Shown here piece by piece: positions 1,577 through 40,860 of a stretch of 64,000 nt of DNA (position 1 is its first letter; the number at the start of each line of letters is the position of its first letter). This DNA comes from a virus (Duplodnaviria; Heunggongvirae; Uroviricota; Caudoviricetes). The stretch spans positions 323,388-387,387 of the IMG/VR virus record IMGVR_UViG_3300044557_000292; one strand, written 5' to 3'. Made by a program: the position numbers and the translations under genes. Below the pieces are notes generated by a model. The model was not told the DNA's origin and did no database searches. It saw nothing but the letters and a program-made list of their open reading frames with translations.

Positions 1577-1732
1577 ATGGTAGAGACTATCGTCGGTATC
1601 GTGGTGCTCGTGATCTTTGGACTCACCCTTAGCCACAGATCATTGAGCCGACTTGTACTCATTGTAGAATCTTACCAGTTCTACCCTCGCCCTGTCCTCT
1701 CCAACCTGACCATTGCTCATCCTGTACTCTAG
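1577..1732 (+). CDS. possible small ORF (51 aa, hydrophobic N-terminus MVETIVGIVVLVIFGLTL)
   Basis: ATG preceded by GAGGGGGAG Shine-Dalgarno 5 nt upstream; below the 60-aa cutoff of the ORF track; overlaps the 3' end of the CCA gene on the opposite strand. Confidence 0.2.
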   Translation: MVETIVGIVVLVIFGLTLSHRSLSRLVLIVESYQFYPRPVLSNLTIAHPVL

Positions 1733-3115
1733 CATGTGATCATAGAGGACACCCAGGACTGGACCAGGCTTGATCCCAAGGATGCTCATCATCTGGTTAC
1801 CGTTCAACTCGGGGCGGATCTTGTCAAGATCCTCCTTGGCCTTGAGCCTGGAGACGTGATCCTCCAGTTGGTCCATGTATCCAATGATGCGGGCCTCACG
1901 ATTCTTATGGAAGGTGGTCACGTCCGCCCTGGTAAGCACCATGAGACGATCATACAGCGGACCCACCTCCTGGAGGAATCTTCGCACACCAGAATCAGAC
2001 CATAAGACCCCGTTGGGATCAGCGTACCCATGTGCCCTCATGTGAAGGGCTACCAGGTCGCTCACATCCCTAATCACGTCATGAGGATACTTCAACGAGG
2101 ATAGCCTCTTCTTCACCATCCCGGCACCAGCAGCCTCGTGGCCATCAAAGGTCACCTTCTTCCTGCCGTTGAACCTCCTGGTGGTAGTCTTGCCCACGTC
2201 ATGGAGCACTGCGGCCAGTCTGAGGACAAGATCGGGGCCTCCATCAGGGAGTCTGTCCTCCATACTGATAGCCCTGTCAAGAACGGTGAGGGAATGCTCG
2301 AAGTTAGCCTTGTGGAGTCCACGGCTACTTCTATCAGCCCTCCTCAATTCTGACAACTCGGGGAGAACGTGATCCATGAGACCCGAATCAGACATCTCCC
2401 GTAGAGCGTTAGATGGGTTGGCTGACAGCATGATCTTGTTCAACTCGTCAGCAACCCTCTCCCTACTGATCTCATCAAGACGTGGGGTCATACTCCTTAT
2501 AGCGTTCATGGTCTCATCTTCAATCTTGAACCCATACTTGCCAACGAATCTGATCGCCCTGAGCATACGGAGTGGATCTTCACCGAAGGAGATCTTTGGG
2601 TCAAGCGGGGTGCGAATGACCCCACGCCTGAGATCTTCACGGCCTCCGTAGGGGTCAACCAGCACAAGATCAGGAAGTCTGATGGCCATCGCGTTGATGG
2701 TCATGTCACGACGCTTGAGATCATCTTCGAGGCTTGAACCCCATTCCACTCGAGGCTTCCTAGATCCACGATTATAGGAATCGGAACGGTAGGTGGTGAC
2801 CTCAACGTCAGCGTCAATATTCCCGGGGAGATGCCTGCGAGCACCAATGGTCCCATACTTACGGCCAACCTCCCAGTAGCCATCTCCCCACGGCATCAGT
2901 ATGCGGGAAGACTCATCTGGTCTAGCATTAGAGGTCATGTCAAGATCTTTTGGAACACGACCAAGAAGAAGATCGCGAACCGGTCCTCCAACAAGAGCCA
3001 GTTCATACCCCCTTGACTGGTATTCCCTTCCAAGACTGATGGATGCGTTGATGAGGGGGATGGCTGCATCTGGAATCATGATGCCACCCAGACCCTTGAC
3101 TGACAGGTTCTTCAT
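1640..3115 (-). CDS. cca: CCA-adding tRNA nucleotidyltransferase / poly(A) polymerase family with HD domain
   Basis: Pol-beta-like head motifs LVGGPVRDLLLGR and RRDMTINAMA, plus C-terminal HD region (LHDVGK, HMRAHG). Start moved to MKNLSVKG (ATG at 3115), which is preceded by GGAAGGAAGG; the tracked ORF extends to 3250. Confidence 0.8.
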   Translation of the reverse strand: MKNLSVKGLGGIMIPDAAIPLINASISLGREYQSRGYELALVGGPVRDLLLGRVPKDLDMTSNARPDESSRILMPWGDGYWEVGRKYGTIGARRHLPGNIDADVEVTTYRSDSYNRGSRKPRVEWGSSLEDDLKRRDMTINAMAIRLPDLVLVDPYGGREDLRRGVIRTPLDPKISFGEDPLRMLRAIRFVGKYGFKIEDETMNAIRSMTPRLDEISRERVADELNKIMLSANPSNALREMSDSGLMDHVLPELSELRRADRSSRGLHKANFEHSLTVLDRAISMEDRLPDGGPDLVLRLAAVLHDVGKTTTRRFNGRKKVTFDGHEAAGAGMVKKRLSSLKYPHDVIRDVSDLVALHMRAHGYADPNGVLWSDSGVRRFLQEVGPLYDRLMVLTRADVTTFHKNREARIIGYMDQLEDHVSRLKAKEDLDKIRPELNGNQMMSILGIKPGPVLGVLYDHMLEYRMSNGQVGEDRARVELVRFYNEYKSAQ

Positions 3116-3265
3116 AATCAGCCTTCCTTCCATTACTGTAGAAGCATTAACGTTAAAATGACAAATGACAATTGAATCATAATATGAAGACCCATAGGAA
3201 ACGCCGCGAGCCATGATGAGAATGGCCCGCGGCGTAGCAATACTCTCCACCAGCTGGATGAGATC

Positions 3266-3790
3266 CTATCGAGCTGACGGTGAGAGTATCAGCGTGACCG
3301 CAGACCCATTATACGTGGGCGGCGTCGAGATTACAAACACGTCTTCAAGCGAAGACACCATGGTCTTCATGCAGTCATACGCGACCTGCTTGTGATCACG
3401 CTCACGTCCACGAAGCTGCACGGTGAGGCGGACTTTATCACCCCTTGATAGGAATCGTACAGCCTGGTTCTTCTTGACCTCAAGATCATGTGATTCTATA
3501 TTCGGGCGGAGACGGATCTCCTTCAACTGCTGTACGCGAGCACTATGCCGCTGACGCTTGGCCTTCTGCTGCTCTTTAAATCTTTCCTCGGACGCATCAC
3601 CCATCTTCACGATGGGAGGATCATGACGAGCATCCATCTCAATGAGGTCAAATCCCGCATCATCGGCCAATCGAAGCGCGACGTCAGTATCAATCACCCC
3701 AGCGCTCTTACCGTTATCGCCTATGAGCATAACCCTGCTCGCGGTGATGTCCCCATTGATCTTCCTACGATTATCAGCGTTCTTACCCAA
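3266..3790 (-). CDS. infC: translation initiation factor IF-3
   Basis: 174 aa; N-domain ASRVMLIGDNGKSAGVIDTDVALRLADDAGFDLIEMDARHDPPIVKMGD and C-domain LKEIRLRPNIESHDLEVKKNQAVRFLSRGDKVRLTVQLRGRE match the bacterial IF-3 architecture; no rpmI/rplT downstream. Confidence 0.85.
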   Translation of the reverse strand: MGKNADNRRKINGDITASRVMLIGDNGKSAGVIDTDVALRLADDAGFDLIEMDARHDPPIVKMGDASEERFKEQQKAKRQRHSARVQQLKEIRLRPNIESHDLEVKKNQAVRFLSRGDKVRLTVQLRGRERDHKQVAYDCMKTMVSSLEDVFVISTPPTYNGSAVTLILSPSAR

Positions 3791-3900
3791 TGACTACTAT
3801 CTTTCTCCACTTACCATGATGACGTGTTCTGTAACGCCATCTACCGGAAACAACATGATGATTATATCAATAGACGGTGATTAGCGCAACAGGCTAACCC

Positions 3901-5091
3901 CTATCTTTCCAGCCTTGCCATTCGATCTTTGAGAACGCCGCCCATCTCGATGATGGCCACCTCAAGGTACACTCTCGTATCATTGTCTAGAGTGGAGTCA
4001 CGTTGGGCTTTCGCGATGATCTTAAAGCACTTGAGTAGGGTCTCAGGTCCAATGGTCACGGACATCTCCACCCTCTTACGAGGATACTCTTTCGTCTCGT
4101 CCTCGGTGAGACTCCCGATGATGATCATCTCCCTAGCGAAGTCAACCAATGATCTTGTAAGCACCCTGACGTCAACCCCGTCGATGATAGCATTAGATAG
4201 GTCAATAAGAGCCTTAACAGAATCCCCGCACGGGCTCTTCCTACCGTTGAGGAATAGATCAGACTCGATGAGGCGGGTCCAGTCCGTCTTATATGAGCCT
4301 GGGGTTGACAGGAGGTGGTCTAGCTCAGACAGGGTCTGACGCGCGGATCCACCCTCGAAGGTAGCCCCAGACTCTTTTATGGCCTTGACGATGAGGTCAG
4401 ACGAGTACACCTTCCTACGCTCGTGGAAATCTTTCCCAGCATCCTCGGTCTCGTACTGCTTCCTCTGCTCTTCTGGAATCTCCTCGTACCCCTCTTGCTT
4501 GAGTATTCTACGGCACAGCGCGTCGAGCGTCTTACGCGGTACGAGCTTGAACGCCCTCTGCTGGACGCGGCTCGTGATGGTCAGGGGTATCTTGTCGATC
4601 TCCGTCGTGCAGAATATGAATATTGACGACATGTTGGGATCTTCGAGTGGGATTAGAAGGGCGTCTAGAGCGTTCTTCGAGAGCCTCTGGATCTCGTCAA
4701 TGATCCATATGGGCTTCCTGATAGCACTCCTACGCTTAGCTTGATCTACTATAGACTTGATGTCATTCACGCCCCCACCCTCGAAGTTGGCAGCGCTCAG
4801 ATAGTGGACACCCATGTTCGTGTTAGCGTCTATAGACTTGCAATTATCACAATGATTACAGGGATTGCCCTCACCGTCAGGGTTCTCACAGTTGATGGCC
4901 TTCGCGAGGATCAACGCTACCGTGGTCTTCCCGCATCCCCTTGGGCCAGAGAAGAGGTACGCTCCGGCTATCCTATCAGTGGATACGCTCTCCCTAAGAT
5001 TATCAACGATCTTATCCTGTCCGACGACCTCCCCCCAAGTCCTTGGACGATACTTCTTGTAGAGCTCCTCATAACCATTCTTCTTAACCAT
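3901..5091 (-). CDS. dnaX: AAA+ clamp-loader ATPase, DnaX (gamma/tau)-like
   Basis: YRPRTWGEVVGQD motif; Walker A GPRGCGKTT; zinc module CENPDGEGNPCNHCDNC; Walker B IWIIDEIQ; sensor TSRVQQ; 396 aa, so a short gamma-like form. Confidence 0.85.
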   Translation of the reverse strand: MVKKNGYEELYKKYRPRTWGEVVGQDKIVDNLRESVSTDRIAGAYLFSGPRGCGKTTVALILAKAINCENPDGEGNPCNHCDNCKSIDANTNMGVHYLSAANFEGGGVNDIKSIVDQAKRRSAIRKPIWIIDEIQRLSKNALDALLIPLEDPNMSSIFIFCTTEIDKIPLTITSRVQQRAFKLVPRKTLDALCRRILKQEGYEEIPEEQRKQYETEDAGKDFHERRKVYSSDLIVKAIKESGATFEGGSARQTLSELDHLLSTPGSYKTDWTRLIESDLFLNGRKSPCGDSVKALIDLSNAIIDGVDVRVLTRSLVDFAREMIIIGSLTEDETKEYPRKRVEMSVTIGPETLLKCFKIIAKAQRDSTLDNDTRVYLEVAIIEMGGVLKDRMARLER

Positions 5092-11486: not shown

Positions 11487-13979
11487 CTATTCCCCGATAA
11501 GATCGAGGATAGCGTCAGAATCATCGGGATGGATCACCCTGACATCATCGCCCCCATCCTTGTCCACAGGAATCGTGAGCAGTGACAGCGCCTTGTCAAC
11601 AGTCATTGGCCTTGAGTAGATAGAGTTCTTGGCAATGGTTGCGAACACCGGCTCATTGCCGTCAACACGATTCAACGAGATGTTAGAACCAGCATCCACA
11701 TCAACCCAGGTGACCTCACCAGTAAGCAGGTCAAGAATGAACGGGGTAGAATTCGTGGACTCCCTCGTGAGACTCCACTTCAAAGCCACGTTCTTTGGAT
11801 CGAAGATCTCACCAGTCTGCTGGCCTAGTTCCGTCTTCAACATGACGCCAGCGCAAGCCTCGGGGATCTTGCTGAAGTGCTGCGCTGTGAATGAGTACAC
11901 GGATGGAATCATATACCTAACCTCAAGCGTATCGAGAGCGTATCTGACATTCACGTCAATGAACTCAGCAGCCCCGTCAGGAGCACTCGTAATGTCCCCA
12001 GAGTGGACAATACCTCTGCCCTCTCGAAGGTTCGTGTAAGATACCTGCCTACTATTCTTGAACCCCTCATCAAAGAACACGGTGCTCATGTCAAGATCAA
12101 CTCTGGAACCGTATTCTTGACTGTTAAGATCATGCCAGTGCATGAAGACACGGACAACAGGCTGTTCACCCCATCCTGGAATCTTGAACCTTGAGCCACG
12201 CCCAATGAGCTTCACGCCAGAACTTACCGACCCAACGCCCATGGGTACAACGTACCGTCCATCTGGAGAGGCAGACACGTCGAGGAACGTCTTCACGTTC
12301 TTACGCTTGTCCTTAAGAGCGGACTCGATGCCATTCATGATGAAACGGGCTTCATCAACCGTCACGTCGTTAACAATCGTGTTGTCAATGCTTGACGTCT
12401 TCTGTCCGTGAGGAGTCCTCATGATGACCATACGCTTGTCAAGATCATTGATACCATCTGACAGTCTCGTGTTCAAGAAACCCCAGAGCTGGATGAGGAC
12501 CCGGTTGCTCACATTCCTGGCCACACTATTGAACGCGGTGAGCACGATCCCATGATACTCCTCGGGGAGCTTGCGGAGCAACTCGACGAGACGACGGGCG
12601 AACACGCCAGGCCTACTCTTCAATTGTCCAACGATCTCATTGACGAGACGAGGATGATCGACCCCGTCTGATTCCTCCCGCAGATCACGAATCAAACCGT
12701 CAACGATCCCATCAAGAGATCTCGTGCCACCAGACTGCACCAAAGCCAGCCACGATCGTGCTGAATCCAATTCTGGGCTATGAGGCAGAACATTGCGAAC
12801 AAGCTCCTGGTAGTGAAGAGTAGTCGCAAGGCGCTTCCATTCCTCCTCGTAACGATGGAACTCGTCTGACAACTGGTCCTCATTAGGATTCTTCTTGAGG
12901 ATACGACCAAGCTCGAATAGGATGAGCTTCCTCTTCGACCTGTTTAGCTTGAACTTCACTGGTGCTGATAGGGAGGCGTCACCATCAGAAGACCAGAATG
13001 CGGCCAGTCTGAGCACATCAGTCACGCTATCGAGAAGATCCTCGTCAACATACTTTGAAACCTCGCCATGATTCCACGTCACGCATGGAAGAACAACGTT
13101 TAGATCAGATCCGTCCAACTCTCTGAGCAATGCGTACAGGAAGACGGCGTTCTCGTGGATCTTAGGCCATTCCGTGATGACTCCGACCGTTTCATCAAGG
13201 TGGAGTAGGGAGAACACGCCCCTGATGAACCACTTCTGATCATCAGACCACACCTGTGATGAAGATACCACATTCTTGAGAACATCAAGGACATCGTTCC
13301 TACTGATGATCCTAATAGCTGTCGGCTTTAACCCGTCAATGAGATGAATCCTAGGTGATGGAGTGTAATCATGCATGATGCGGACACCGATCCAATCACC
13401 GAGGTAATGCAGGAAGGCATTCCAGATTAGCTCTTCATCCGATGCTTCCGCCACCTGTTCTGGGAAGTCCGGGTACATTGGACGATAATCGTAAGCCGTT
13501 CCGCGCGATTCCTTAAGCACATCAAGAACAGAAGACAGCGTGCCGGCCGAAACACTGCCCAGGCGCTCGACGAGATCATCATAACCTACACCCGATTGAG
13601 AGCTGCCTGTGATCGCGTAGTTAAGAGATAAAGCATTAGCAATGAATGCAAGAACAGCGTGCGTTGAAGCGCCTTCAAGATCATCAATTGGGTACAGGAA
13701 TATCTCGTTATGATTAACGGTAAGGTACTCGTTCACCGCATTGAGGTTAGCCTTGTCCAGCCCACGCTTAAGTTCATGAATTCCACCATAGTTAACGGTA
13801 CTAGCATTATCGATCTGATTCTGGGGATCATTAATGTTATCATCACGCTTATCCTTAAGCGCTTTCAGACCACTTGCCGTTCCCCCTGTGGCCTTATTGA
13901 GCTCATCCAGGCCATCAAGACTGTCATCAGGACCGTGATCGTGGTTTCCAGTGAACTCATCCTTGCTTGCTACTCTCAT
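11487..13979 (-). CDS. large protein (830 aa) with C-terminal TerD-like domain
   Basis: C-terminal segment SRVDLDMSTVFFDEGFKNSRQVSYTNLREGRGIVHSGDITSAPDGAAEFIDVNVRYALDTLEVRYMIPSVYSF matches the TerD/CABP pattern (LDLDas...fyn.l...g.v.HsGDn.tG..gddE.i.vdL...ivf.v.iy). Confidence 0.55.
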   Translation of the reverse strand: MRVASKDEFTGNHDHGPDDSLDGLDELNKATGGTASGLKALKDKRDDNINDPQNQIDNASTVNYGGIHELKRGLDKANLNAVNEYLTVNHNEIFLYPIDDLEGASTHAVLAFIANALSLNYAITGSSQSGVGYDDLVERLGSVSAGTLSSVLDVLKESRGTAYDYRPMYPDFPEQVAEASDEELIWNAFLHYLGDWIGVRIMHDYTPSPRIHLIDGLKPTAIRIISRNDVLDVLKNVVSSSQVWSDDQKWFIRGVFSLLHLDETVGVITEWPKIHENAVFLYALLRELDGSDLNVVLPCVTWNHGEVSKYVDEDLLDSVTDVLRLAAFWSSDGDASLSAPVKFKLNRSKRKLILFELGRILKKNPNEDQLSDEFHRYEEEWKRLATTLHYQELVRNVLPHSPELDSARSWLALVQSGGTRSLDGIVDGLIRDLREESDGVDHPRLVNEIVGQLKSRPGVFARRLVELLRKLPEEYHGIVLTAFNSVARNVSNRVLIQLWGFLNTRLSDGINDLDKRMVIMRTPHGQKTSSIDNTIVNDVTVDEARFIMNGIESALKDKRKNVKTFLDVSASPDGRYVVPMGVGSVSSGVKLIGRGSRFKIPGWGEQPVVRVFMHWHDLNSQEYGSRVDLDMSTVFFDEGFKNSRQVSYTNLREGRGIVHSGDITSAPDGAAEFIDVNVRYALDTLEVRYMIPSVYSFTAQHFSKIPEACAGVMLKTELGQQTGEIFDPKNVALKWSLTRESTNSTPFILDLLTGEVTWVDVDAGSNISLNRVDGNEPVFATIAKNSIYSRPMTVDKALSLLTIPVDKDGGDDVRVIHPDDSDAILDLIGE

Positions 13980-14065
13980 TCAGTGTCTCCGTTCTGTAAT
14001 CTTGCATATAAAAAGGGTGAACCGTGACAAGCGATCCACCCTAATTACCGTACAAAGCATTGAGT

Positions 14066-14240
14066 GATTGGAAAGCACGCGGGCATGATTTTCATTTACT
14101 ATGAAGTGGATAGAAGAACTCCCACGTATGGCCAATCATTCAATTACATGCGGTAACTCGTTGTGGAAAGCGATGGAGCAATTTTTTAATCAGAAAAGTT
14201 AGAAGAACTCTCCATCATGGCCGCAATTCGTTACATTAAA
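14066..14240. repeat. tandem duplication of an ~88-bp unit in the intergenic region
   Basis: ttggaaagc..tagaagaactcccacgtatggccaatcattcaattacatgcgg followed by tgtggaaagc..tagaagaactctccatcatggccgcaattcgttacatt; lies upstream of the start of the 11487..13979 gene. Confidence 0.5.
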
Positions 14241-14293
14241 TATTATATCACGGTTCTATCATCATGCAACCTAGTGATCAATTCTCTTGATTC

Positions 14294-15556
14294 TTATCGT
14301 ACAGTATCCAGGATCTTTACAGCCCTAGCATTAAAGTCCACGCTTCCAATAAAGTAATCATATGCTCGCTCCCTGAACTGGTCATAATAATCATCGCTTG
14401 ACAAGAGCGCACGGTACTTCTCCGAGAAGTCATCCCACTGGGAGTCATCAGCCCATAGCGAATCATCATCAGTTGACGGCAATGCTAGCATACCGAACTC
14501 GGATAAATCGCGATCAGGCATGAGGGTGCCCCTGTACATGGATGGAACGGCTAGTACGGTGCCATTCTGGATGATTTCCAGTGTGACGTATTCTGGTAAA
14601 AGATTCATTTTTGGATCTAGGAATGACGTGTACATGCCTACGAAAGACTCACTGATGAGGCGTTCTCCCACTTTGGGATCATATAGTCCATAAATCTGGG
14701 CCTTATCCTCCAAGGTGTTGGAGAAATGGATGTCAGTCTTATTCTTCTTATGATACTCGAGGAATGGCTTGAAGACTTTTGGCTTGAGGCTTACCGTGAG
14801 TTTTGATACCGTGCCTATACTAGGCATGAGGCCATTCATACAGAGGTTAATGTCAATATGATGGTTAGCGCATCTCTGCTTGAAATCTAGCCATTGAATC
14901 CATCCCTTCCATGCCGGCGTTCTTCCCTGCCAGTAGAATTGCATTCTATACTTATCTTCCGGGGATCGCCAGTTCTTCCTGCTCTTGTCGAACAGGGTGT
15001 TATGCTGCATGTAATGGACCTTGTTGAGGAATTCCTTACTTTCCGTTCCATTGAGACTAGAATTGATGACCTTAACGATCTCGTCCCCGGTACCGAAGGT
15101 GATGAAGCTATCCAAATGTTTGAAGATACTGTTATCAAGCTTGACTCCAAGCTTCTCTGACTGCGCTATCCTGTGGCCAACATTAATATAGATCAGCTTA
15201 CCGTTATTCTTCTTGTCAAGGATAAGATCTGTCTGCCGTCTTATGGGCTTCATGGCCTCTAGTTTATACGAGTCGTCCCCCTTATTCCAATTCTTAAGGG
15301 TGGGCCAGTTAAGGTTAAAGATCACGGTCATCTCTGCTTGACGGAAATGGAAGTCTTCATCCATGAGGTCAAAGAACGCATCATTACTCCTCGGTTCTTC
15401 CTTCCTCGACATGCCCTTGGAAAACGTGTTCGTGTTCAAATAGACCTTCACGTCATAACCCAGACTCGCGATGATGGACTCAAAGTTCCGTAAAGCGTTG
15501 TCTAGTCCTCCATACGTGTTTCCAATCATGTTGATGATATTGATTCTTATCGCCAA
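14294..15556 (-). CDS. hypothetical protein (K/N-rich, lower GC)
   Basis: 420-aa ORF; local GC is clearly lower than the neighbouring genes. Confidence 0.5.
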   Translation of the reverse strand: MAIRINIINMIGNTYGGLDNALRNFESIIASLGYDVKVYLNTNTFSKGMSRKEEPRSNDAFFDLMDEDFHFRQAEMTVIFNLNWPTLKNWNKGDDSYKLEAMKPIRRQTDLILDKKNNGKLIYINVGHRIAQSEKLGVKLDNSIFKHLDSFITFGTGDEIVKVINSSLNGTESKEFLNKVHYMQHNTLFDKSRKNWRSPEDKYRMQFYWQGRTPAWKGWIQWLDFKQRCANHHIDINLCMNGLMPSIGTVSKLTVSLKPKVFKPFLEYHKKNKTDIHFSNTLEDKAQIYGLYDPKVGERLISESFVGMYTSFLDPKMNLLPEYVTLEIIQNGTVLAVPSMYRGTLMPDRDLSEFGMLALPSTDDDSLWADDSQWDDFSEKYRALLSSDDYYDQFRERAYDYFIGSVDFNARAVKILDTVR

Positions 15557-15669
15557 TGGTAATCTCCTCGCCCGCTGCTTCTGCTTTCCTTAACTTTAAA
15601 TCTTACCATAAGACCTTGAGCGTTTTGTGATATCAAGATCGATTCCCCCCCCCATTACAGTACTCCAGG

Positions 15670-16671
15670 CTACTCATCAAGAATCTTTGAAAAGTCATCC
15701 AGTACAGTGTCAGCGTACTCCGTACCATTCTTGACTCGGTCTATAAGGTCTGTGTTAATCCTATCGTCAAAAGTACTGTTGTCAGGGGATAGGGTTAACG
15801 ATTCGTAATACCTCTTGGTGAGTAGGTACTCTCCCTTAATTGGCTCGTAGGGGACGAGAAGTTCGGCAGCATTGCGGGCGAACCAAGCCCACGAGTTGGG
15901 ATCGCTCCAATTATTCTTCTTCACATCAGTGCTGAAATCCCTCACGTTGGGGAATACCTTCTTAATATTGCCGAATACCCCATCTTCAGGGGATTTTCCT
16001 AGATGCATTCTTTGTAATGATTCCTTGAGTACTGGCTTATTAGCTCCATAATAGAACCTGTTGACCGTGGGTTGAGAAGAGTCAAAGATAGTTTGCCGCC
16101 CCGGATATTCTTCGCCAATACCGGCCATTTCGTCTGGAAGAAAGTATGAGAAGAATGATAACCAGGGGCACGTTGTGAAGACGCTGTCCTTGTGAAGATG
16201 CTTCATGAACTTCTTGTTGATGTAACCCATAGATTCTTTATCGTTAAGCACACTGCGATCAAATGCGCCTATAACCTTCACTGGCCTCATGTCATATACG
16301 GACGCTCGGCTCTTAAGATCATCTTTATTCCAAACATGAGTATCAATGGTGAAGGTGAGCTCATCGTAGGGGAGGCATATCGCGTACGGTTTAGCGTTAT
16401 TGAAAATGTACGTGAGTGTATCTTTAACGTGCCCGAATGAAGCGTAAAGAGCGCTGCCGAACCACGGTAGGATGATGGAATCATAATCACCTATAGGCCA
16501 ATTGCTCACATTACCATCAAGATCTTTTAATTCTACGCTATCAACTCTTCCGGGTATTCTACGCAATCCCTGTAAGAGCGCCTTCTGATCCCCTCTGGTA
16601 GTTGCCGTTCCATGAAAAACGATCAGGGTCTTCCTACTTGAATGATCGTCTTTATTGTTCTTGGTCACCAT
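15670..16671 (-). CDS. hypothetical protein (lower GC)
   Basis: 333-aa ORF; belongs to the same low-GC block as 14294..15556. Confidence 0.5.
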   Translation of the reverse strand: MVTKNNKDDHSSRKTLIVFHGTATTRGDQKALLQGLRRIPGRVDSVELKDLDGNVSNWPIGDYDSIILPWFGSALYASFGHVKDTLTYIFNNAKPYAICLPYDELTFTIDTHVWNKDDLKSRASVYDMRPVKVIGAFDRSVLNDKESMGYINKKFMKHLHKDSVFTTCPWLSFFSYFLPDEMAGIGEEYPGRQTIFDSSQPTVNRFYYGANKPVLKESLQRMHLGKSPEDGVFGNIKKVFPNVRDFSTDVKKNNWSDPNSWAWFARNAAELLVPYEPIKGEYLLTKRYYESLTLSPDNSTFDDRINTDLIDRVKNGTEYADTVLDDFSKILDE

Positions 16672-18489: not shown

Positions 18490-19749
18490 TCAGTACTGCT
18501 CGATGGAAACAGAATCGCTCTTGTGGTCAATTCTAGCAATGCTGAGGAATCCGCCCTTGTCCACCCTCGTCTCCAGATTGAAGATCTTACTGAACTCCCT
18601 TGGGTCATGACGATGTTCGTTACGATGCCCGTGGAATTGTATAACATCGGTATTCGCATCTTCAACGATCTTGTCAATATCAATCTTGTAGTCATGAACC
18701 ATTGGGCTCCCCCCGGTCCCGTACCACCAGGTCGACCCGCTCGTGAAGCCAATGTCATATGACCTGTAACCATCCAGCTCATGGTGCTCAAGCATGGCTG
18801 GATGTACTCCCCCATGAGACGAGAAGTAGTGCTTACCATCATAATAGAATGGGAAGTAGTCAACAAGATGAGTATCAATCAACCGCCCGTACCTCCGGAG
18901 GTTCTCTACTGAACCGTGAACATACTTAGAATCCCTTAGAATCTCCTCAATTGTCTTCCTCGTGGACAAAGAGTACGGCTCCCATACTTTAGATCCATAG
19001 TACTTAAAGTAACTGTCATGATTGCCCTTGATGAATACCCTGTTCGTATCATTGATATGATCAATGATCCAATCAAACATTGGCCCGGCTTCATCTTCAG
19101 GCCCACGATCCATAAGGTCACCACAGAACACGGTGAACTCACGAGGATTAATATTGTCTGCGCCAGATCTTACGAACGTGGAGTAGCAGCCCTGAATATC
19201 CCCAATCACCCTGACGTTCGAGTACTGGGAGAGCTCTGTCTCTTGAATCTTCCCTTGACCGCAGAACTCATCTACCGTCATTGCTGACTCGCTCCTATTG
19301 ACCTGAAATCTCCTCGTATCAGTCCAAGTCTTCTCCACCTCAGCGTCAGTCCAAGGTCTGTTCGCCCTGTGGGAACGCTCAATAACCTCTTCCAGTGATT
19401 GTTCTCCCTGAACGTTGACGAACACGACCTCGTAATTGTACTCATGTGCGAGATTCAGGATAGGATTAATCTTCTTGCGCTTTGAGTTCGTCCAATCAAA
19501 TATGATAGCATCCCCGGAACGCATCCTGCGCTCTATAATCTTGCAGGCGATGTCTAATGCTGTCCGTATGTTCTCGTTCGTAGAGTCACACCCGTAGGCG
19601 ATCTTACCATTATGATAATACGGCCTGTTCGGATCGATGATTCTCAATATGGAGTCAACGGATACGGTCTGGTCCTCCAGATGCTGTCTACGGATCAGGG
19701 TGGTCTTTCCTGACCCGTGCGCTCCCCGTATAATAAATATTTTACTCAT
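18490..19749 (-). CDS. polynucleotide kinase-phosphatase-like protein (P-loop kinase plus calcineurin-like metallophosphoesterase)
   Basis: N-terminal Walker A GAHGSGKTT; C-terminal metallophosphatase motifs GDIQGCY, GDLMDRGPE, GNHD, HGG and FHGHRNEH. Confidence 0.7.
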   Translation of the reverse strand: MSKIFIIRGAHGSGKTTLIRRQHLEDQTVSVDSILRIIDPNRPYYHNGKIAYGCDSTNENIRTALDIACKIIERRMRSGDAIIFDWTNSKRKKINPILNLAHEYNYEVVFVNVQGEQSLEEVIERSHRANRPWTDAEVEKTWTDTRRFQVNRSESAMTVDEFCGQGKIQETELSQYSNVRVIGDIQGCYSTFVRSGADNINPREFTVFCGDLMDRGPEDEAGPMFDWIIDHINDTNRVFIKGNHDSYFKYYGSKVWEPYSLSTRKTIEEILRDSKYVHGSVENLRRYGRLIDTHLVDYFPFYYDGKHYFSSHGGVHPAMLEHHELDGYRSYDIGFTSGSTWWYGTGGSPMVHDYKIDIDKIVEDANTDVIQFHGHRNEHRHDPREFSKIFNLETRVDKGGFLSIARIDHKSDSVSIEQY

Positions 19750-19770
19750 AAGTCAATAGTAACAATAAGG

Positions 19771-19860
19771 GGTGAACACCGCAACGCGGGGAATACTCTT
19801 GAATGATCTCCCGTCACCAAGTTTGAATACAGGTTCAGACCCGCCTACACGGGGTTCACC
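19771..19860. CRISPR. solitary degenerate CRISPR-like unit (2 diverged repeats, 1 spacer-length insert)
   Basis: ggtgaacaccgcaacgcggggaatac, then a 34-nt insert, then ggttcagacccgcctacacggggttcacc; sits exactly between the topA stop (19861) and the PNK start (19749). Confidence 0.6.
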
Positions 19861-20949
19861 CTAACGCTTCCTTGAAACCCTTCCAGATGCGGGCTTCCTC
19901 CTCGCAGGATGATCTTTCTGATAATCATCCCATATTTCCTTAGCCCGATCAGGAGACAGCGCCCTGGGATCTTCCCCATCTGGAAGCGATATGAATACAG
20001 CACGACCACGCGGAGCATTCTTATGACCCAGCCACGCCCCCCTCTTCCCTATTCCAGTGAAGAACCCGTCACCGAGCTGTCGTGGTAGCTTCACCTCTGA
20101 GAACATCTGCTCAGCATCTTGAAGGGTCACCGTGTCCTCAGTGAGACCACCGTCCTTGGGAAGCGTCATGTTCACGGGCTTAGCGCTCTTCACTGGTGAA
20201 CCATCCTTATGGATCCTCACGGCCTGCACGTAAGAGCCATACTTACCATTCCTAGCCGTCACCTGCCATCCAGCATACGGGCCGTCCTTCAGTATCCCCA
20301 GGACACGATTCACGGGCGATTTTGCCTCATCTAGTAGCTTCCTGCACGCGCCCGGCGTGAGGGCGTCTTCATCTGTTAGAACGGAATCATCCAGCTTCAC
20401 GCTCTTCACGTACCCAGAATCATTCTTCTCCCCCGAGGGGTCTTCAAGCCACGCGCCAGACCTGTTCACCCTGACCACGTACCCGCCGTTGAGATGAACC
20501 TCCGACAGCGTGTTGATCTCATTCCAGTCAATATTCCTAGCGAGACCATTCACCCTGCCATCAATGCCGTCAGGAGCCTTCCACACGCCATCAAGGAAGT
20601 CATCCCTTGATAGCGATCCGTCACCGATCTTATCAAGATCTTCCTCCATGGATGCGGTGAACCCGTAGTCAACGTACCCCGGAATCTTATCCTCAAGAAT
20701 CTGGGCGACCTTCATGCCCGTCCATGTCGGCGCCATCGCCCTTCCCTTCTTCTGCACGTACCCGCGCTTCTGATTCACGGTCACGAGGTTAGCATACGTT
20801 GACGGTCTACCAATACCAAGTTCTTCCAACTTGGCCACAAGTTGCGGCTCTGTGAACCTTGCCGGAGGTGTAGTCGTGTGCATGGTCGAGGATGCTGTTG
20901 ACAACTCACATTCCTCCCCAACCTTGAACTCATGCGTATTCCTTGCCAT
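19861..20949 (-). CDS. topA: DNA topoisomerase I, C-terminal portion (downstream of the in-frame TAA)
   Basis: TPPARFTEPQLVAKLEELGIGRPSTYANLVTVNQKRGYV matches the conserved topo IA domain III/IV region. Confidence 0.75.
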   Translation of the reverse strand: MARNTHEFKVGEECELSTASSTMHTTTPPARFTEPQLVAKLEELGIGRPSTYANLVTVNQKRGYVQKKGRAMAPTWTGMKVAQILEDKIPGYVDYGFTASMEEDLDKIGDGSLSRDDFLDGVWKAPDGIDGRVNGLARNIDWNEINTLSEVHLNGGYVVRVNRSGAWLEDPSGEKNDSGYVKSVKLDDSVLTDEDALTPGACRKLLDEAKSPVNRVLGILKDGPYAGWQVTARNGKYGSYVQAVRIHKDGSPVKSAKPVNMTLPKDGGLTEDTVTLQDAEQMFSEVKLPRQLGDGFFTGIGKRGAWLGHKNAPRGRAVFISLPDGEDPRALSPDRAKEIWDDYQKDHPARRKPASGRVSRKR

Positions 20950-20967
20950 AATGACCTCCCTATTCTT

Positions 20968-22389
20968 TTATTCTTCACCGTCATCATACACGGACAGGAA
21001 TCCCCTGTCATCTATCCTCGTACTACTCGTCGTGAACACGGCCTTACCGTCACTAGATGTAATCGTGATCTTTCGCGTGATCCCCCTCGCAGGGTTCATC
21101 TGGCTAGCCACGGTCCTCCTGTACACGAGATCATAGACCTCACCAGCCTTAGCGTCATATGAGGAAGATGCCGTCAGCCCCCTGATCTTCGCTGGATCAT
21201 AGAATATTCCCGTTGATTCCTCTACAACAGGACGGATGCACTCGTGACCCTCCTGAGCATTCTTAGACTTCGACTTGTATATGATCGGCTTTGATGGCAT
21301 CTGTCCACCGTACTGTTTACGGATAATACTCCTCGCCGCCCTCACGGCCTCATCTGCCATCGCTGGGCTGTCCGTCCTTGAGTATGTTTGATACGTGTGC
21401 TCGAAGAGCTGCTGGGCTATACTCATAGCCCTGCTGGCCGTGAGCCCAAGCATGGATCCAACATTCTGCTGGTATGATGACGTGGTGTACGGGGTTGGAG
21501 GATTCCTCTTATAGGGCTTCTCCGTAATGTCAGTGATACTGTACTTTTTTGACTTCAGGTCTTTTAGGATCTTCTTCACATTATCATCACTGAGGGTGAG
21601 CTTATCTGAGGATCCATCCTTCAGCATGCCGTCAGGACCGTAATCAGATCCCGATGCTATTCTACTCCCATCGTACTCCACGAGGCTAGCCGTCAATTCG
21701 GCTTCCGTCCCCCTGTTAAAAACAGCCTCAATGGATCCATATGACGCCTTCACGAAGCCTAGGCGATCCTTCTCCCTGTTCACGACGAGGCGCAGGGTGG
21801 GTGACTGCGCCCTGCCTCCAGACGTCCCAGACCCTACCGTCTTCCAAAGGTATGGGGAGATACTGAACCCGAAGAGACGATCATAGACCTGCCGGGCCTC
21901 TGCCGACTCGGCCTTCCGCACGTCTATACTAGCATATGACTCCAGACCGGCAAGCACTGCCCGCTTCGTGATCTCATGCCAACTCGCCCTGCGGACATCC
22001 ATGCCAGACTTCTTGAGATCTGATTCTAGCGACTGCACGACCTCGTATCCAATGAGCTCTCCCGCCTCGTCCGGATCAGTACTCACATAGAAATGCTTCC
22101 ACCTGCCAGACCTGACCTCAGATCTGATCTCACCCCACTGCTTACGATTCTGAGGGTCATGATCTAGGAGACGCTCATAACGCCCACTCCGCACGTCGAT
22201 CGAGTAATCGCCGTACCGTTCACGCTCTTGACTAGTGCTCTTCTTCGGGTCCTTGAGCTCGAACATGAAACCCTTCGTGGCCATGATCTTCCACCCGCTG
22301 CCAAGGAACCCAGTGATCTCCCTGGCCTTGGTAGGCGACTCAACGATCATGAGGCCGCCGTCACGCTGAATGTCTTCTATGATTGCCAT
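20968..22389 (-). CDS. topA: DNA topoisomerase I, N-terminal portion (TOPRIM plus domain II), ends at an in-frame TAA
   Basis: LMIVESPTKAREITGFLG TOPRIM motif; the stop (TAA at 20968-20970) is in the same frame as the downstream ORF and separated from its ATG by 18 nt. Confidence 0.75.
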   Translation of the reverse strand: MAIIEDIQRDGGLMIVESPTKAREITGFLGSGWKIMATKGFMFELKDPKKSTSQERERYGDYSIDVRSGRYERLLDHDPQNRKQWGEIRSEVRSGRWKHFYVSTDPDEAGELIGYEVVQSLESDLKKSGMDVRRASWHEITKRAVLAGLESYASIDVRKAESAEARQVYDRLFGFSISPYLWKTVGSGTSGGRAQSPTLRLVVNREKDRLGFVKASYGSIEAVFNRGTEAELTASLVEYDGSRIASGSDYGPDGMLKDGSSDKLTLSDDNVKKILKDLKSKKYSITDITEKPYKRNPPTPYTTSSYQQNVGSMLGLTASRAMSIAQQLFEHTYQTYSRTDSPAMADEAVRAARSIIRKQYGGQMPSKPIIYKSKSKNAQEGHECIRPVVEESTGIFYDPAKIRGLTASSSYDAKAGEVYDLVYRRTVASQMNPARGITRKITITSSDGKAVFTTSSTRIDDRGFLSVYDDGEE

Positions 22390-22410
22390 TCAGATCATGG
22401 TACCAAATGC

Positions 22411-23250
22411 CTATCGGGTGGCAATAAGCCCCTTGGAGATGACGTTCCCATCAGCATCCACAAGATCACAGGACATCTGCATAACGTAGGTGAGACCGTG
22501 CTCATGACTAATCCAATCACCGTCAACAATGGAGTCAATACGATCGAAATCAGACTCACTGATGACGCGTGGATCGTCAATACCGTCACCTATCTTGAGG
22601 AATGCGTAAAGATCATCGCGCACGACCTGCAGCCTAAGGTTAGACCAACCATGACGTTTACCATCGGACACGTTCCTGAACTCGAACAGCATAGAATCAT
22701 CGTCTAGAAGATCCTGCACGATGCGCACAAGAGCAGACAACTCTTCATCGCTGGTCTTAGAACCCACACTGATGCGGAACAGGGTCGGGTGATAGTTGAT
22801 CCCCATTCCCTTCCCAACGGTCTGAACGTACTGCGCGCGATCACCACCGTACGCATTGTCCACGATGACCACATCTGTCCTCCTGATGTCAGAATCCTCA
22901 GGGTACGCTTTGACCTTAGCGTCACCGTTCAGAGTGAGGAGGGCCATGTCCACGAACTCCTCAAGGTACTTCCTGAGAATAGAATCACAACTCACGTTAC
23001 TAAACTTGTAGACAGAATATGACCCCGTGTGGATAGCATCATAGAGTGAAGATGCGTTCTTCCGGGAATCCAGCGATTCCTTAATGACGCTGCGTGCTGA
23101 TTCCAATCTGTGCAGGTTATGCTCGTAGTCCTCCTTGAGCGTACTGATAGCATTGTCAAGATTCTTGAGGTCTAGCAGATCCCTCGCATAGCCATTCTTC
23201 ACCTTGTTCTCGGGTGTGGACACCTTGATGACAGCATTGAATTCTTTCAT
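22411..23250 (-). CDS. hypothetical protein
   Basis: 279-aa ORF. Confidence 0.45.
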   Translation of the reverse strand: MKEFNAVIKVSTPENKVKNGYARDLLDLKNLDNAISTLKEDYEHNLHRLESARSVIKESLDSRKNASSLYDAIHTGSYSVYKFSNVSCDSILRKYLEEFVDMALLTLNGDAKVKAYPEDSDIRRTDVVIVDNAYGGDRAQYVQTVGKGMGINYHPTLFRISVGSKTSDEELSALVRIVQDLLDDDSMLFEFRNVSDGKRHGWSNLRLQVVRDDLYAFLKIGDGIDDPRVISESDFDRIDSIVDGDWISHEHGLTYVMQMSCDLVDADGNVISKGLIATR

Positions 23251-31297: not shown

Positions 31298-32701
31298 TCA
31301 CTCACCAGTATCAGATGCAGTTTCCTTTTCCGTGGCCGTCGTGCCTGCAGGCGTGTCGGCAGTCGCGGCCCCATCAGGATCAGGATTCTGGTGCGCTAGC
31401 TCTCTCAGAGACTTCGCGAGATCAACACCGGTGAGCGTGTTCACCAGTGTTGGCAACTTGGCAGCAAGATCGGTTACGAGACTAGATGTCCGATCCTGCG
31501 CGTCTGTACCAACCGAGGTGATGGTAGCGCCCTCAAGAGGCTTGCTCAGGGATGCGGCAAGCTCAGGCAGCTTCTCGATGATGAGTGACTGCAGGGCAGC
31601 CTGACCATACTTACGATAGGCCTCCGCCTTCTTGTTCATAGCCTCGGCCTCTGCAAGACCCTGTGCCCTCACAGCGTCAGCCTTGGCCTCACCCTGCGCT
31701 CTAATCGCCTCGGCCTCAGCGACAGCTCGCGCCTTCGTTGCGGCAGCCTCAGCATCAGCATTCTGACGGGTGACCTCGGCCTGGGCCTCAGCATCAGTCT
31801 TCCTCTTGTACTTCTCAGCGTCAGCCTTCGTGTTCACGTCAGACTCAAGACGAACCCTCTGCAGCTTGACGTTCTCAGCTTCGGCGAGAGCCTCGGCCTC
31901 AGCAATCTTCTTATTCTGTGCCTGCTGTTCGAGACTCTTCACGGCCTCAGCGTTCACATCAGCCTTACCGATGTCAGCCTTAATGCTTGCCTGTTGTAGA
32001 GCGAGATCCTTCTGACTCAGAGCGATCTCTCGATCAGCGGCGATCTGCGCTTGCTGGGCTTCCTGCTTAGCATTCGCCTCAGCAATCGTGGCGGCCTTCT
32101 TCACAGACGCTTCCTGAGGAGCACCAAGAGCATCAATATAACCAGTCTGGTCATTGATCTCCTGAATCTGGAGCGTATCCAGGGACAGCCCCTGAATGGT
32201 GATAGAGTCAGCGACCTCATCACGGACAGCCTTCGTGAACTCAAGACGATCAGAGAGAAGACTCTCGACCGTCATCCCGCCTACGATAGACCTCATCGAT
32301 CCCTCAATGATTTCCTTCACGTACGGCTCCATGATCTGTTCCTGCCGAGAGAACCTCTGGGCTGCCAGGCGGATGTCCTCATCGGTGTTATTCACCTTGA
32401 AGGTTGTAACGACCTTGAGGTGGATCTTGATCTTCTCCTTAGAGATGGCATCGCATTCAGTACTGATCTGATGCGACTTGAGGGAGATGCTCACCACCCT
32501 GTTGATGAAAGGCCAGACGAATCCTCCACGATTCTGGAGAACCCTGACCGCTCTGTTCCCATTATCATCTTTACCATTTGATCCAGAGATGACGTAGGCC
32601 TCGTTGATGGTCGGCGTCTTATACCGGCTCACCAGGAACCATACTAGCAAGATGACGATCAGTATGATTGCTCCTGCGCCTATAGGGGTCGAATAATCCA
32701 T
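31298..32701 (-). CDS. flotillin-like SPFH/band-7 protein
   Basis: N-terminal TM, SPFH domain, then a long Ala/Glu/Gln/Lys coiled-coil repeat region (AEANAKQEAQQAQIAADRE...). Confidence 0.85.
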   Translation of the reverse strand: MDYSTPIGAGAIILIVILLVWFLVSRYKTPTINEAYVISGSNGKDDNGNRAVRVLQNRGGFVWPFINRVVSISLKSHQISTECDAISKEKIKIHLKVVTTFKVNNTDEDIRLAAQRFSRQEQIMEPYVKEIIEGSMRSIVGGMTVESLLSDRLEFTKAVRDEVADSITIQGLSLDTLQIQEINDQTGYIDALGAPQEASVKKAATIAEANAKQEAQQAQIAADREIALSQKDLALQQASIKADIGKADVNAEAVKSLEQQAQNKKIAEAEALAEAENVKLQRVRLESDVNTKADAEKYKRKTDAEAQAEVTRQNADAEAAATKARAVAEAEAIRAQGEAKADAVRAQGLAEAEAMNKKAEAYRKYGQAALQSLIIEKLPELAASLSKPLEGATITSVGTDAQDRTSSLVTDLAAKLPTLVNTLTGVDLAKSLRELAHQNPDPDGAATADTPAGTTATEKETASDTGE

Positions 32702-36786: not shown

Positions 36787-38097
36787 CTACTTGACTTCCG
36801 AATCCTCAGATCCATCTGACGGCAATGTCCTATCAACCTTACTCGACAGAGTGTTAATGAGATCAGTTCTGGTATCATCGAGGATCTTGGATTCCATGAG
36901 CGTCTTATTCAGAAGATCAAGTTGCTTCTGCATTCTCTCGGTGGCATCATGATTGAACTCTACAGAATTCTTCTCAGCATCCTTGAACGCCTGATGGGCC
37001 GAGATGATCGTGTTCAGGGTGGCTTGCATGTTCTCAACGTTATCATGGAGGCTCTCCTGGATCTTATTCACACTGTCCACAGAGTCCTTAAGATTCACCG
37101 CGTTATCCATGTTAAGATTGACGGCGGCCGCGTCTGCCGTGAGTACAGCCTTACGAGCCGTTTCCTGGACGTAGATTCCATGGGCGAGTTGAACGGCGGA
37201 CTTGAGACGGATGACCGCCGTGTTCTTCGTGCTCTTGACCTGCTCGATCATCTTCCAATGCGTCTTCGCGAGGAGGTCAATAGAAGCAATGTACGTGGTC
37301 TGACCGGCAGCGATGTTGATGAGATCAGATCGTCTGCGTTCTAGGGTGTTCAGTACCTCAGACTCAAGAGCTTCCTTAATCTCGGGATCAGCATTGAACT
37401 TGCCGCTTGATAATTCCGTCCTCAACTGTTCGATGATCTTACCAGCCAAGGACGCTTGTTGCGTGGCGGCCTCAACGCACTTCAACGCCCTGACGCGATC
37501 TTCCTTATATACCGCAATGTCACTCCTGAGCGAGAATTCATACTTGGTGAGCGTCTTCATGCAATCCTCAATGACTGCACCAGCCTTGCGGGTCTTATTG
37601 AAGAAGCTGCGCACTGGGTCATATACCGCTCGAAGGAGCTTGTTCTCCGGGCGATGGAGGATCTTCCTAGCATCAATGTCATTCATCGCGTTAGACATCT
37701 TGGTGAGCGTCTTGCCAATGTTCTTATTGGCTTCAGATCCCCTGCCAAGCTCTCCCATCGATATGTCAAACTGAGACTTGTTACTGATATCTGGGAGGAG
37801 ATCTTTAATAGCATCCTCACCGAAGTTCTCATACTTCTCGTGGAGATCATAGATCTTCGAGAATTTCTGTGAATCTTTAGCGTCATGCGACTTGATGACG
37901 TTGAAGGTATCACCAGAGATAAGACTTGAATCCATGAACTTCTTGTGCCCGGAGACAGCATTAGCAACAGCCTTCTTAGCAGCCTCAACATCATTCCTCG
38001 TATCTGACTCTAACTGCGGGGCTGCCGCGACCCCCGCCGAAATTGATCCATCATCCATACTAACCATTCTCCTTATAGCATCGTTATGATTGGCCAT
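36787..38097 (-). CDS. coiled-coil protein, possibly TelA-like (toxic anion resistance family), tentative
   Basis: 436 aa, all-helical composition; segment YENFGEDAIKDLLPDISNKSQ...MGELGRGSEANKNIG loosely resembles the TelA N-terminal FG...S..S...GE.G pattern. Confidence 0.35.
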   Translation of the reverse strand: MANHNDAIRRMVSMDDGSISAGVAAAPQLESDTRNDVEAAKKAVANAVSGHKKFMDSSLISGDTFNVIKSHDAKDSQKFSKIYDLHEKYENFGEDAIKDLLPDISNKSQFDISMGELGRGSEANKNIGKTLTKMSNAMNDIDARKILHRPENKLLRAVYDPVRSFFNKTRKAGAVIEDCMKTLTKYEFSLRSDIAVYKEDRVRALKCVEAATQQASLAGKIIEQLRTELSSGKFNADPEIKEALESEVLNTLERRRSDLINIAAGQTTYIASIDLLAKTHWKMIEQVKSTKNTAVIRLKSAVQLAHGIYVQETARKAVLTADAAAVNLNMDNAVNLKDSVDSVNKIQESLHDNVENMQATLNTIISAHQAFKDAEKNSVEFNHDATERMQKQLDLLNKTLMESKILDDTRTDLINTLSSKVDRTLPSDGSEDSEVK

Positions 38098-39891: not shown

Positions 39892-40860
39892 TCAGTCCTC
39901 GTAATCATCCTCATCTTCGTAATCATCCTCGTAGTCATCATCATAATTCAAGGAGATGTCCTGCGTTGGATTCCTCGTGACGTTCAGAACCTCGTACTTG
40001 CAGACACGGAGCTTCTGGTACGCGGAGTCTACGGGGACGGAAACCACGTCGCCCGCGCTGAACGCGACGGTGAGGACGTAACCGTTCCCCCAGCTGTTAG
40101 CGTAATCCCACGTGCCAATGTGAAGACCAGGTGCGCATCCATTATTCGGATCATCGGTCACCTTGCTCTTTGGCATGGCGATAATCGACCCGATCTTATT
40201 CGGGATGTACCCATTGACCTCACGGAACTCCTTCTCGCCCTTCTCCTTCACAAGACCAAGACCTGACCTCTTTGAGAAGGGAACGCCGTCCATATCCTGC
40301 ACGCCCTTGTACCCAACGACACGACCATCATCAAGGAGCGTGAACCCATTCGTGCTATCATCCTCGAAGTTAGACTTCAACCATGAGAACAACTGGTCAC
40401 GAACATACTTCGTGTTATTCGAGTAGAGATCGTTCACGAATCTGAGAAGAGCTGTCCAGTTGCGATCAGAACCATCCGGGTCATCGGCCTCCGTGTGGAG
40501 GATGCGGAGGATCTCACGCTCGAGTACCTGGTCGATGGGCTCCCCGTCCATGAAGATCCTCTCGCCGCACCTCGTGAGCCTGTCATTGAGACCAAGAGAT
40601 TCAAGATGACCGGAGATCTTCTCCTCAACGATGGATGCGGCAGCCGTCGCGTTCAAGATGAGGTCGGCAAGATCCTCGGGGCTGCTCCCGTCCTCTATGG
40701 CTGATACGATCCCATCGAATACTGCCGTATCGCTAGATCCCCTCTGGATGCTGAACGTCTTCAGGGTGCCATCATCAAGTCTAATGATGCCATGAAGCTC
40801 GTCGTAATGCCCTTCCAGAACGTTATTGTTACCGCTAAGACTGGTGACTGTAGCCATCAT
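39892..40860 (-). CDS. hypothetical protein with acidic DDYEDDYEDEDDYED tail
   Basis: 322-aa ORF. Confidence 0.45.
   Translation of the reverse strand: MMATVTSLSGNNNVLEGHYDELHGIIRLDDGTLKTFSIQRGSSDTAVFDGIVSAIEDGSSPEDLADLILNATAAASIVEEKISGHLESLGLNDRLTRCGERIFMDGEPIDQVLEREILRILHTEADDPDGSDRNWTALLRFVNDLYSNNTKYVRDQLFSWLKSNFEDDSTNGFTLLDDGRVVGYKGVQDMDGVPFSKRSGLGLVKEKGEKEFREVNGYIPNKIGSIIAMPKSKVTDDPNNGCAPGLHIGTWDYANSWGNGYVLTVAFSAGDVVSVPVDSAYQKLRVCKYEVLNVTRNPTQDISLNYDDDYEDDYEDEDDYED

Follow-up and report, generated by a model that had tools for sequence, protein, structure and literature searches.

Organization of the topoisomerase I locus

The stretch analyzed here, hereafter the window, comprises 64,000 nt of the virus record IMGVR_UViG_3300044557_000292 (IMG/VR; positions 323,388 to 387,387 of that record) and carries on its minus strand a topoisomerase I locus composed of two consecutive open reading frames (ORFs), topA-N (20968..22389, 473 aa) and topA-C (19861..20949, 362 aa). 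topA-N ends in a TAA stop codon (20968..20970), followed by an 18-nt intergenic spacer, AAGAATAGGGAGGTCATT (20950..20967; AAG AAT AGG GAG GTC ATT, six sense codons in the same frame), and by the ATG of topA-C (20949..20947), which in turn closes with TAG. A Shine-Dalgarno (SD) sequence, AGGGAGG (20955..20961), lies 5 nt upstream of this ATG. A first-pass annotation made from the sequence had described this layout exactly and had offered four explanations for it, namely a genuinely split two-subunit enzyme, a recent nonsense mutation, readthrough or recoding at the stop codon, and a sequencing error.

According to Pfam matches and alignment to PDB structures, topA-N holds the TOPRIM domain and the opening segments of domains IV and II, then domain III in full, including the catalytic tyrosine, and the greater part of the second domain II segment, with a match to residues 22-474 of M. 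tuberculosis TopI (5d5h, E 7.5e-72). The TOPRIM domain (N-half residues 13-133, 21991..22353; PF01751, E 3.7e-10) bears the acidic motifs IVESPTKA (22324-22347) and STDPDEAGE (22057-22083), both of which align to 5d5h. The codon of the catalytic tyrosine, Y336 (21382..21384), was located by the alignment of QTYSRTDS with ITYMRTDS of M. tuberculosis TopI and, more broadly, with the YMRTDS motif of TopA structures. The earlier domain assignment needs one correction: domain III, which had been placed in the second half, belongs to the first, where Y336 is found. The second ORF, topA-C, takes over at the final beta-strand of domain II and continues through the remainder of domain IV into C-terminal domains of the mycobacterial type and a basic tail; it matches residues 494-793 of M. 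smegmatis TopI (6pcm, E 1.3e-38). Its elements include a putative docking strand (C-half residues 7-17, EFKVGEECELS, 20899..20931), the C-terminal part of the Topoisom_bac core found by Pfam (residues 6-119, 20593..20934) with its invariant motifs TTPPARFTE (20848-20874) and GIGRPSTYA (20791-20817), a Toprim_C_rpt repeat (residues 227-286, 20092..20271; PF13368, E 2.4e-10), and the basic C-terminal tail RRKPASGRVSRKR (19864..19902).

Because the positions of a single Pfam profile divide between the two ORFs (of the 411 positions of Topoisom_bac, 2-288 match topA-N with E 3.5e-60 and 298-410 match topA-C with E 3.8e-31), the two ORFs complement each other and add up to one complete topoisomerase I of bacterial type, with no part missing. 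The halves sum to 835 aa, as against 790-822 aa in unsplit relatives, and both the unsplit relatives (P0012-P0024) and the PDB chains align collinearly with the two halves. The pair displays the features by which a TopA-type enzyme is recognized, that is, the TOPRIM glutamate and DxD cluster, the Y-x-R-T-D-S tyrosine, and a complete D1-D4 core. It departs from that type in its division into two ORFs, found in the window and in nine related loci, whereas every bacterial TopA characterized so far is, to our knowledge, one polypeptide chain.

The cut falls in a variable, acidic loop that links the conserved strand GF(L/M)xxY to the beta-strand after it, within the second segment of domain II and ~30 residues before domain IV begins at PPARF. 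The N half ends just past the position of GFLKAY in M. tuberculosis TopI, and residue 11 of the C half aligns to residue 498. Residue R31 of the C half aligns to residue 476 of the E. coli TopA chain 1mw8, which puts PPARF at ~473-477; domain IV presumably resumes at this motif, given a II/IV boundary that we take to lie near residue 472 of E. coli TopA in its 67-kDa structure. An AlphaFold2 model of the unsplit relative P0012 reached a mean predicted local distance difference test (pLDDT) score of 89.8 and template modeling scores (TM-scores) of 0.75-0.83 against mycobacterial TopI. Its sole segment under pLDDT 50, residues 475-478, lies in the loop between a helix (466-470, itself after strand 453-464) and strand 491-503, to the start of which the putative docking strand of topA-C was aligned. 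Since this is the single segment of such low score in the model, the cut has fallen on the protein's only loop that is disordered and tolerates insertions, and the C subunit would start with the beta-strand that completes domain II.

Conservation of the cut and maintenance of both genes

The reproducibility of the junction was examined in an independent contig, L172, which derives from another Joint Genome Institute (JGI) sample and shares 98.85% nucleotide identity with the locus over 2515 nt (29 mismatches, no gaps). Its junction is identical to that of the window (TAA, 18 nt, ATG), and the exact N-half protein is present on 5 contigs, the longest of 419,707 bp. The TAA of topA-N is real rather than a sequencing error.

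The comparison with orthologues that had been proposed for this locus was carried out by reading the DNA of nine related split loci (L001-L005, L007, L169, L170, and L172), and it revealed relatives that are cut in the same loop by differing junctions. When split, unsplit, and bacterial sequences were aligned, each of the nine cuts came to lie in the same acidic loop of variable length, and eight of the loci (all except L172) reach this cut through differently built junctions. The halves overlap by 1 nt in L001 (TGATG), 4 nt in L003 (ATGA), 17 nt in L002, and 14 nt in L004, are separated by gaps of 134 nt in L005 and 122 nt in L007 that contain stops, and are parted by whole genes in L169 (a 1425-aa Big_2/SpaA gene, 11738-16015) and L170 (a phrog_2400 ORF of unknown function together with a D12-class Dam methylase, 3515-4956). 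The split site evidently serves as a gene-insertion point. The stop codons that close the N halves may be TAA, TGA, or TAG, and a frame offset of 0 is confined to the lineage of the window (one of seven adjacent junctions), the others being +1 or +2. As the junctions of relatives vary in frame, overlap, gap, and intervening genes, the in-frame position of the TAA in this genome would be a coincidence of spacing. A homing-endonuclease origin of the split was considered and found no support, given that the window spacer is 18 nt long and that the intervening ORFs of L169 and L170 have no nuclease domain.

These observations were extended to protein clusters. Among the 14 nearest N-half clusters (100% to 49% identity), 13 have lengths of 456-498 aa and C-termini no more than two residues away from a common position, the remaining one, P0016, being shortened by a frameshift. 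On the C-terminal side, the 30 best clusters span 98% to 38% identity, and 29 of them are separate proteins of 334-408 aa whose start lies a few residues ahead of one and the same conserved strand. The one left over, P0128, is part of an unsplit protein that breaks off at a contig end. An exhaustive search of 1.84 billion representatives at 50% identity yielded 12 clade-level clusters (6 split, 5 unsplit, and 1 fragment), beyond which scores fall sharply to ordinary bacterial TopA. Every one of the 10 split loci (the window and the nine loci named above) holds one N half and one C half, in that order. As a control, 160 topA loci outside the clade were drawn from metagenomes and IMG/VR, of which 153 are single ORFs and 7 are cut by a contig end; because these other loci are single ORFs, the split is specific to this phage clade.

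A metagenome scan with the C-half alignment did not recover the clade, being swamped by ordinary bacterial topA, and was used as a control only, and the IMG/VR scans, which found no close relatives, likewise served as an unsplit control set. Among GenBank phages, blastn of the locus gave no match and tblastn of the C half gave only distant core matches in 16 records, so the clade is absent from the phage genomes deposited there. One locus, L008 (relative P0016, 55% identity), was considered as a split at another position and rejected, since it carries a 1-nt deletion in an otherwise unsplit gene. This deletion (~4140-4160) lies within the highly conserved KNAQEGHEAIRP motif (AAGAACGCCC-GGAGGGGCACGAG) and yields ORFs of 431 and 477 aa; the same product occurs on four contigs, which leaves a genuine frameshift or pseudogene and a systematic error as the two readings.

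Purifying selection acts on both halves, and both genes are maintained. Between split lineages, the ratio of nonsynonymous to synonymous substitution rates (dN/dS) ranges over 0.07-0.10 in comparisons of N halves and 0.075-0.19 in those of C halves, the window and L172 differ by 19 synonymous and 8 non-synonymous changes, and the C-half core motifs TPPxRFTE, IGRPST, and QxRGY are invariant in 31 sequences. With regard to expression, the 5-mers GGAGG/AGGAG occur at 2.6% of random window positions versus 18% of crude ORF starts, and SD-like motifs precede the C-half start in L001-L005 as well, often within the last codons of the N half (e.g., GGT AGG AGG GAC TGA TG in L001). In the scanned region 19600-22700, no terminator-like sites were found and promoter-like matches were at chance level (5 versus 2.9 +/- 1.6 expected). 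One of them, a sigma-70-like match (ATGACA-17-TATGAT, 10/12) at 20983-21011 on the minus strand, falls within the 3'-terminal part of topA-N, with the start of topA-C ~35 nt downstream of it, and may mean nothing given the chance-level count of the region.

A probable two-gene enzyme and the competing explanations

Taken together, we consider it highly probable (about 0.88) that topA-N and topA-C are two real, conserved, separately translated genes for a heterodimeric TopA-type topoisomerase of a huge phage. As in other split type IA enzymes, complementary parts of the core lie on two genes and the division is conserved in evolution. In the mechanism that we propose, both chains would be made from one transcript through independent or coupled initiation. 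topA-N would bear the whole catalytic apparatus, that is, the TOPRIM acidic residues and Tyr336 in domain III, while one strand of domain II, what is left of domain IV, the C-terminal repeats that bind DNA, and the basic tail would come from topA-C. The halves would then assemble non-covalently as the strand at the N-terminus of topA-C fills the gap in the domain II sheet, and this assembly would close the toroid, so that the enzyme would work like an ordinary topoisomerase I and relax negative supercoils by single-strand passage.

Several points weigh against this interpretation. Heterodimer formation and strand complementation are deduced from homology and from the single-chain model of a relative. 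The search for suppressor tRNAs covered 64 kb of a ~420-kb genome, and low-level readthrough of the in-frame TAA is possible in this genome. Moreover, the split is evidently not required for function, because some unsplit relatives are sister to split ones.

Of the four explanations offered by the first-pass annotation, only the genuinely split two-subunit enzyme holds, and the other three are contradicted by these data. A sequencing or assembly error in an uninterrupted gene has nothing in its favor beyond its a priori possibility and is contradicted by L172, a separate sample that keeps the junction despite its 29 mismatches over 2515 nt, by the identical N-half product on 5 contigs, and by the relatives cut at the same loop, which leaves it with practically no likelihood. 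A recent nonsense mutation that turned topA into a decaying pseudogene would account for the appearance of the locus, as one in-frame stop with intact flanks is what a fresh mutation looks like, but the cut is common to lineages down to ~38-50% identity whose junction architectures differ, both halves show dN/dS values of 0.07-0.19, the downstream half is equipped with a separate SD and ATG, and the catalytic and structural motifs are invariant in 31 C halves. With the cut kept from 100% to ~38% identity and both halves under purifying selection, decay of the gene is scarcely plausible. Programmed readthrough, suppression, or recoding that gives one 842-residue polypeptide as the main product draws on the fact that the two ORFs of the window share one frame and are separated, after the TAA, by six sense codons without a further stop. 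This spacing, however, occurs in only one of seven adjacent junctions, and an in-frame, stop-free spacer would be expected by chance in ~25% of cases (an estimate rather than a computed value). In the relatives, the halves are in other frames (+1 or +2), overlap, are separated by 122-134-nt gaps with stops, or, in two cases, are parted by whole genes. The check for a suppressor tRNA or for stop-codon readthrough suggested by the earlier annotation also gave a negative answer, since no tRNA genes, suppressor tRNAs included, were found in the 64-kb window and TAA terminates 11 of its 49 long ORFs (TGA ends 24 and TAG 14). With an optimal SD and ATG available for independent initiation, readthrough is a very improbable source of the main product.

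Rejoining of the halves by protein trans-splicing (a split intein) or by ribosomal bypass has precedents in phage genes in pieces, such as the bypass in T4 gene 60 (bioRxiv 10.1101/2022.08.31.505936). Against it, the junctions hold no extra sequence, as the N half stops 4-8 residues past the conserved GFxxY and the next conserved strand follows 3-20 residues into the C half; added together, the halves are as long as the unsplit relatives, Pfam shows topoisomerase domains only, and the junction sequences are unconserved. We therefore assign this route an almost negligible chance, and, because the junctions of relatives differ in frame and spacing, readthrough, bypass, and trans-splicing are all ruled out as a general mechanism. 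Another idea is that the two products no longer cooperate, with topA-N, for example, nicking or cleaving alone and topA-C acting as an independent single-stranded DNA-binding protein. The separation of the halves by other genes in L169 and L170 would fit such a scenario, as would the ability of TopA C-terminal domains to bind single-stranded DNA unaided (PMC7192597). Nevertheless, the halves occur 1:1 and in order in 10 of 10 split loci, topA-C keeps the domain IV core motifs TPPxRFTE and IGRPST, which by our reasoning have no obvious role outside the toroid, and topA-N by itself is without parts of domains II and IV. Trees built from the N halves only and from the C halves only also give the same split/unsplit sister groups, as expected of co-evolving partners. 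Loss of cooperation is thus unlikely, and the heterodimer assembled from two separately translated subunits is preferred.

Evolution, genome context, and significance of the split enzyme

The phage sequences form one clade within bacterial-type TopA, and split and unsplit forms interleave in it, which indicates from the sequences that the split/unsplit state changed several times. The trees are neighbor-joining only, so the number and direction of events are provisional. The unsplit P0012 groups with the split L169/L005 (99% support in the concatenated tree, 84% N-only, 100% C-only), and the unsplit P0018 groups with the split L007 (P0014 / P0131; 100% concatenated, 99.5% N-only, 96.5% C-only). 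The unsplit P0021 stands with the split P0013/P0244 in both the N-only and the C-only trees, with weaker support. Most unsplit members keep the LP motif of the linker found in bacteria (e.g., P0012, P0015, and P0241, but not P0242) and split members lack it, which favors several independent fissions. In P0242, an unsplit 836-aa relative of the group B split forms, a linker that has no LP connects, at residues ~430-480, an N tail of group-B type (EPGWTKIY...) with a C head of group-B type (…GH-ATIKDLKKG, versus M-ALKDLK in split forms), and its sequence looks like a secondary re-fusion of a split gene. The recurrence of such events could plausibly reflect the composition of the disordered, Glu/Asp/Gly-rich loop, whose codons (GAG GAG, GGA GGA) readily form SD-like sequences; a stop or frameshift arising there would plausibly be rescued by reinitiation at a nearby ATG. 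A rather speculative extension, which we consider doubtful, is that the loop is a recurrent break-and-rejoin point, with several independent splits and at least one re-fusion (P0242), and that phages may exploit the non-covalent seam in the toroid. If true, the amount of C subunit made available in the course of infection might serve to control topoisomerase activity, or the seam might provide the ring with a second opening, and such exploitation would go beyond neutral rearrangement tolerated at a permissive loop.

The surrounding genes point firmly to phage DNA, because an rIIA-like gene (41002-43842, minus strand; phrog_612, E 8.5e-45, GHKL ATPase fold) adjoins an rIIB-like gene (39892-40860, minus strand; phrog_609, E 9.4e-30), a hallmark pair of T4-type phages. 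Other genes of the window encode a virion structural protein, a transglycosylase, an alpha-glucosyltransferase-like protein, the large subunit of a class Ib-type ribonucleotide reductase (RNR_N domain), and a clamp-loader subunit, and the majority of ORFs have no Pfam family. As relatives of the topA halves lie on contigs of 0.2-0.7 Mb, the lineage is probably one of huge phages. An RNA-repair set was also observed on the minus strand, consisting of a P-loop kinase (AAA_33) protein directly downstream of topA-C (18490-19749), whose C-terminal part appears metallophosphatase-like by eye (no Pfam match), a kinase-Rnl1 RNA ligase fusion (54535-56055), and a CCA-adding/poly(A) polymerase with an HD domain (1640-3250). 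The same strand carries a Band_7/flotillin-like protein (31298-32701) and a TelA-like protein (36787-38097), homologues of which lie beside topA in L001 (Band_7) and L002 (TelA), suggesting conserved synteny around topA in this phage group.

Natural precedents for divided type IA enzymes come from archaea. The topoisomerase III of Nanoarchaeum equitans (NeqTop3) is, in the account given by PMC4200833 (citing Lee et al. 2013), a relaxation-active heterodimer from a split gene and resembles the phage enzyme as a type IA topoisomerase of two polypeptides from two genes. It differs in belonging to the archaeal Topo III subfamily, whereas the phage enzyme is of bacterial TopA type with Toprim_C_rpt domains and shares 31-33% identity with mycobacterial TopI versus 18-23% with Topo III structures; in the phages, moreover, the genes are adjacent and the split state varies within the clade. 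The split reverse gyrases of Methanopyrus kandleri (RgyA/RgyB) and N. equitans are likewise natural two-subunit enzymes with a type IA module, the M. kandleri enzyme being cut off the boundary between its helicase and topoisomerase domains (PMC8185306), but they have a helicase module, which the phage enzyme lacks, come from hyperthermophilic archaea, and are probably cut at other positions. The position of the clade within bacterial TopA-type sequences makes it very unlikely that its split has a common origin with those of the archaeal enzymes, and the resemblance is one of principle.

The best sequence and fold matches are the mycobacterial TopI enzymes (5D5H, 6PCM), which share D1-D4, Topo_C_Rpt, and a basic tail with the phage enzyme but are single polypeptides, only about 31-38% identical to it, in which the loop cut in the phage enzyme is continuous. 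The unsplit huge-phage topA genes (P0012, P0015, P0017-P0024, P0241, and P0242) belong to the same clade and are collinear at 41-56% identity, the difference being one ORF of 790-914 aa that in most cases keeps the ancestral LP motif. Phage topoisomerase II is a classic multi-subunit enzyme, and that of T4 (gp39/gp60/gp52) is another case of a topoisomerase gene divided into separately translated subunits, reviewed among the genes in pieces of T4-like phages (PMC2988022). It is, however, a type IIA enzyme whose split is tied to a mobile endonuclease gene and translational bypass, whereas the ORFs that intervene in the phage topA have no endonuclease domain and most junctions span a few nucleotides. 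A survey of jumbo phages lists two-subunit type II and type IB enzymes and no split type IA (PMC7824862), and our literature search, of incomplete coverage, returned no report of a split bacterial-type TopA or of a split type IA enzyme in phages.

These findings suggest that bacterial-type topoisomerase I, beyond archaeal Topo III and reverse gyrase, can be a heterodimer. Type IA topoisomerases act by opening and closing a protein ring, and the transmission of motion through the arch and hinge of domain II is debated. A TopA maintained by selection in which a non-covalent contact within the second domain II segment would close the ring offers a natural test of the need for covalent continuity, and the cut site presents a design point for split or conditionally assembled TopA. 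For annotation, such gene pairs in huge phages should not be labeled as pseudogenes or frameshift errors. More broadly, the interleaved split and fused forms provide a clean case in which a gene has been split and fused repeatedly at a loop whose structure permits it.

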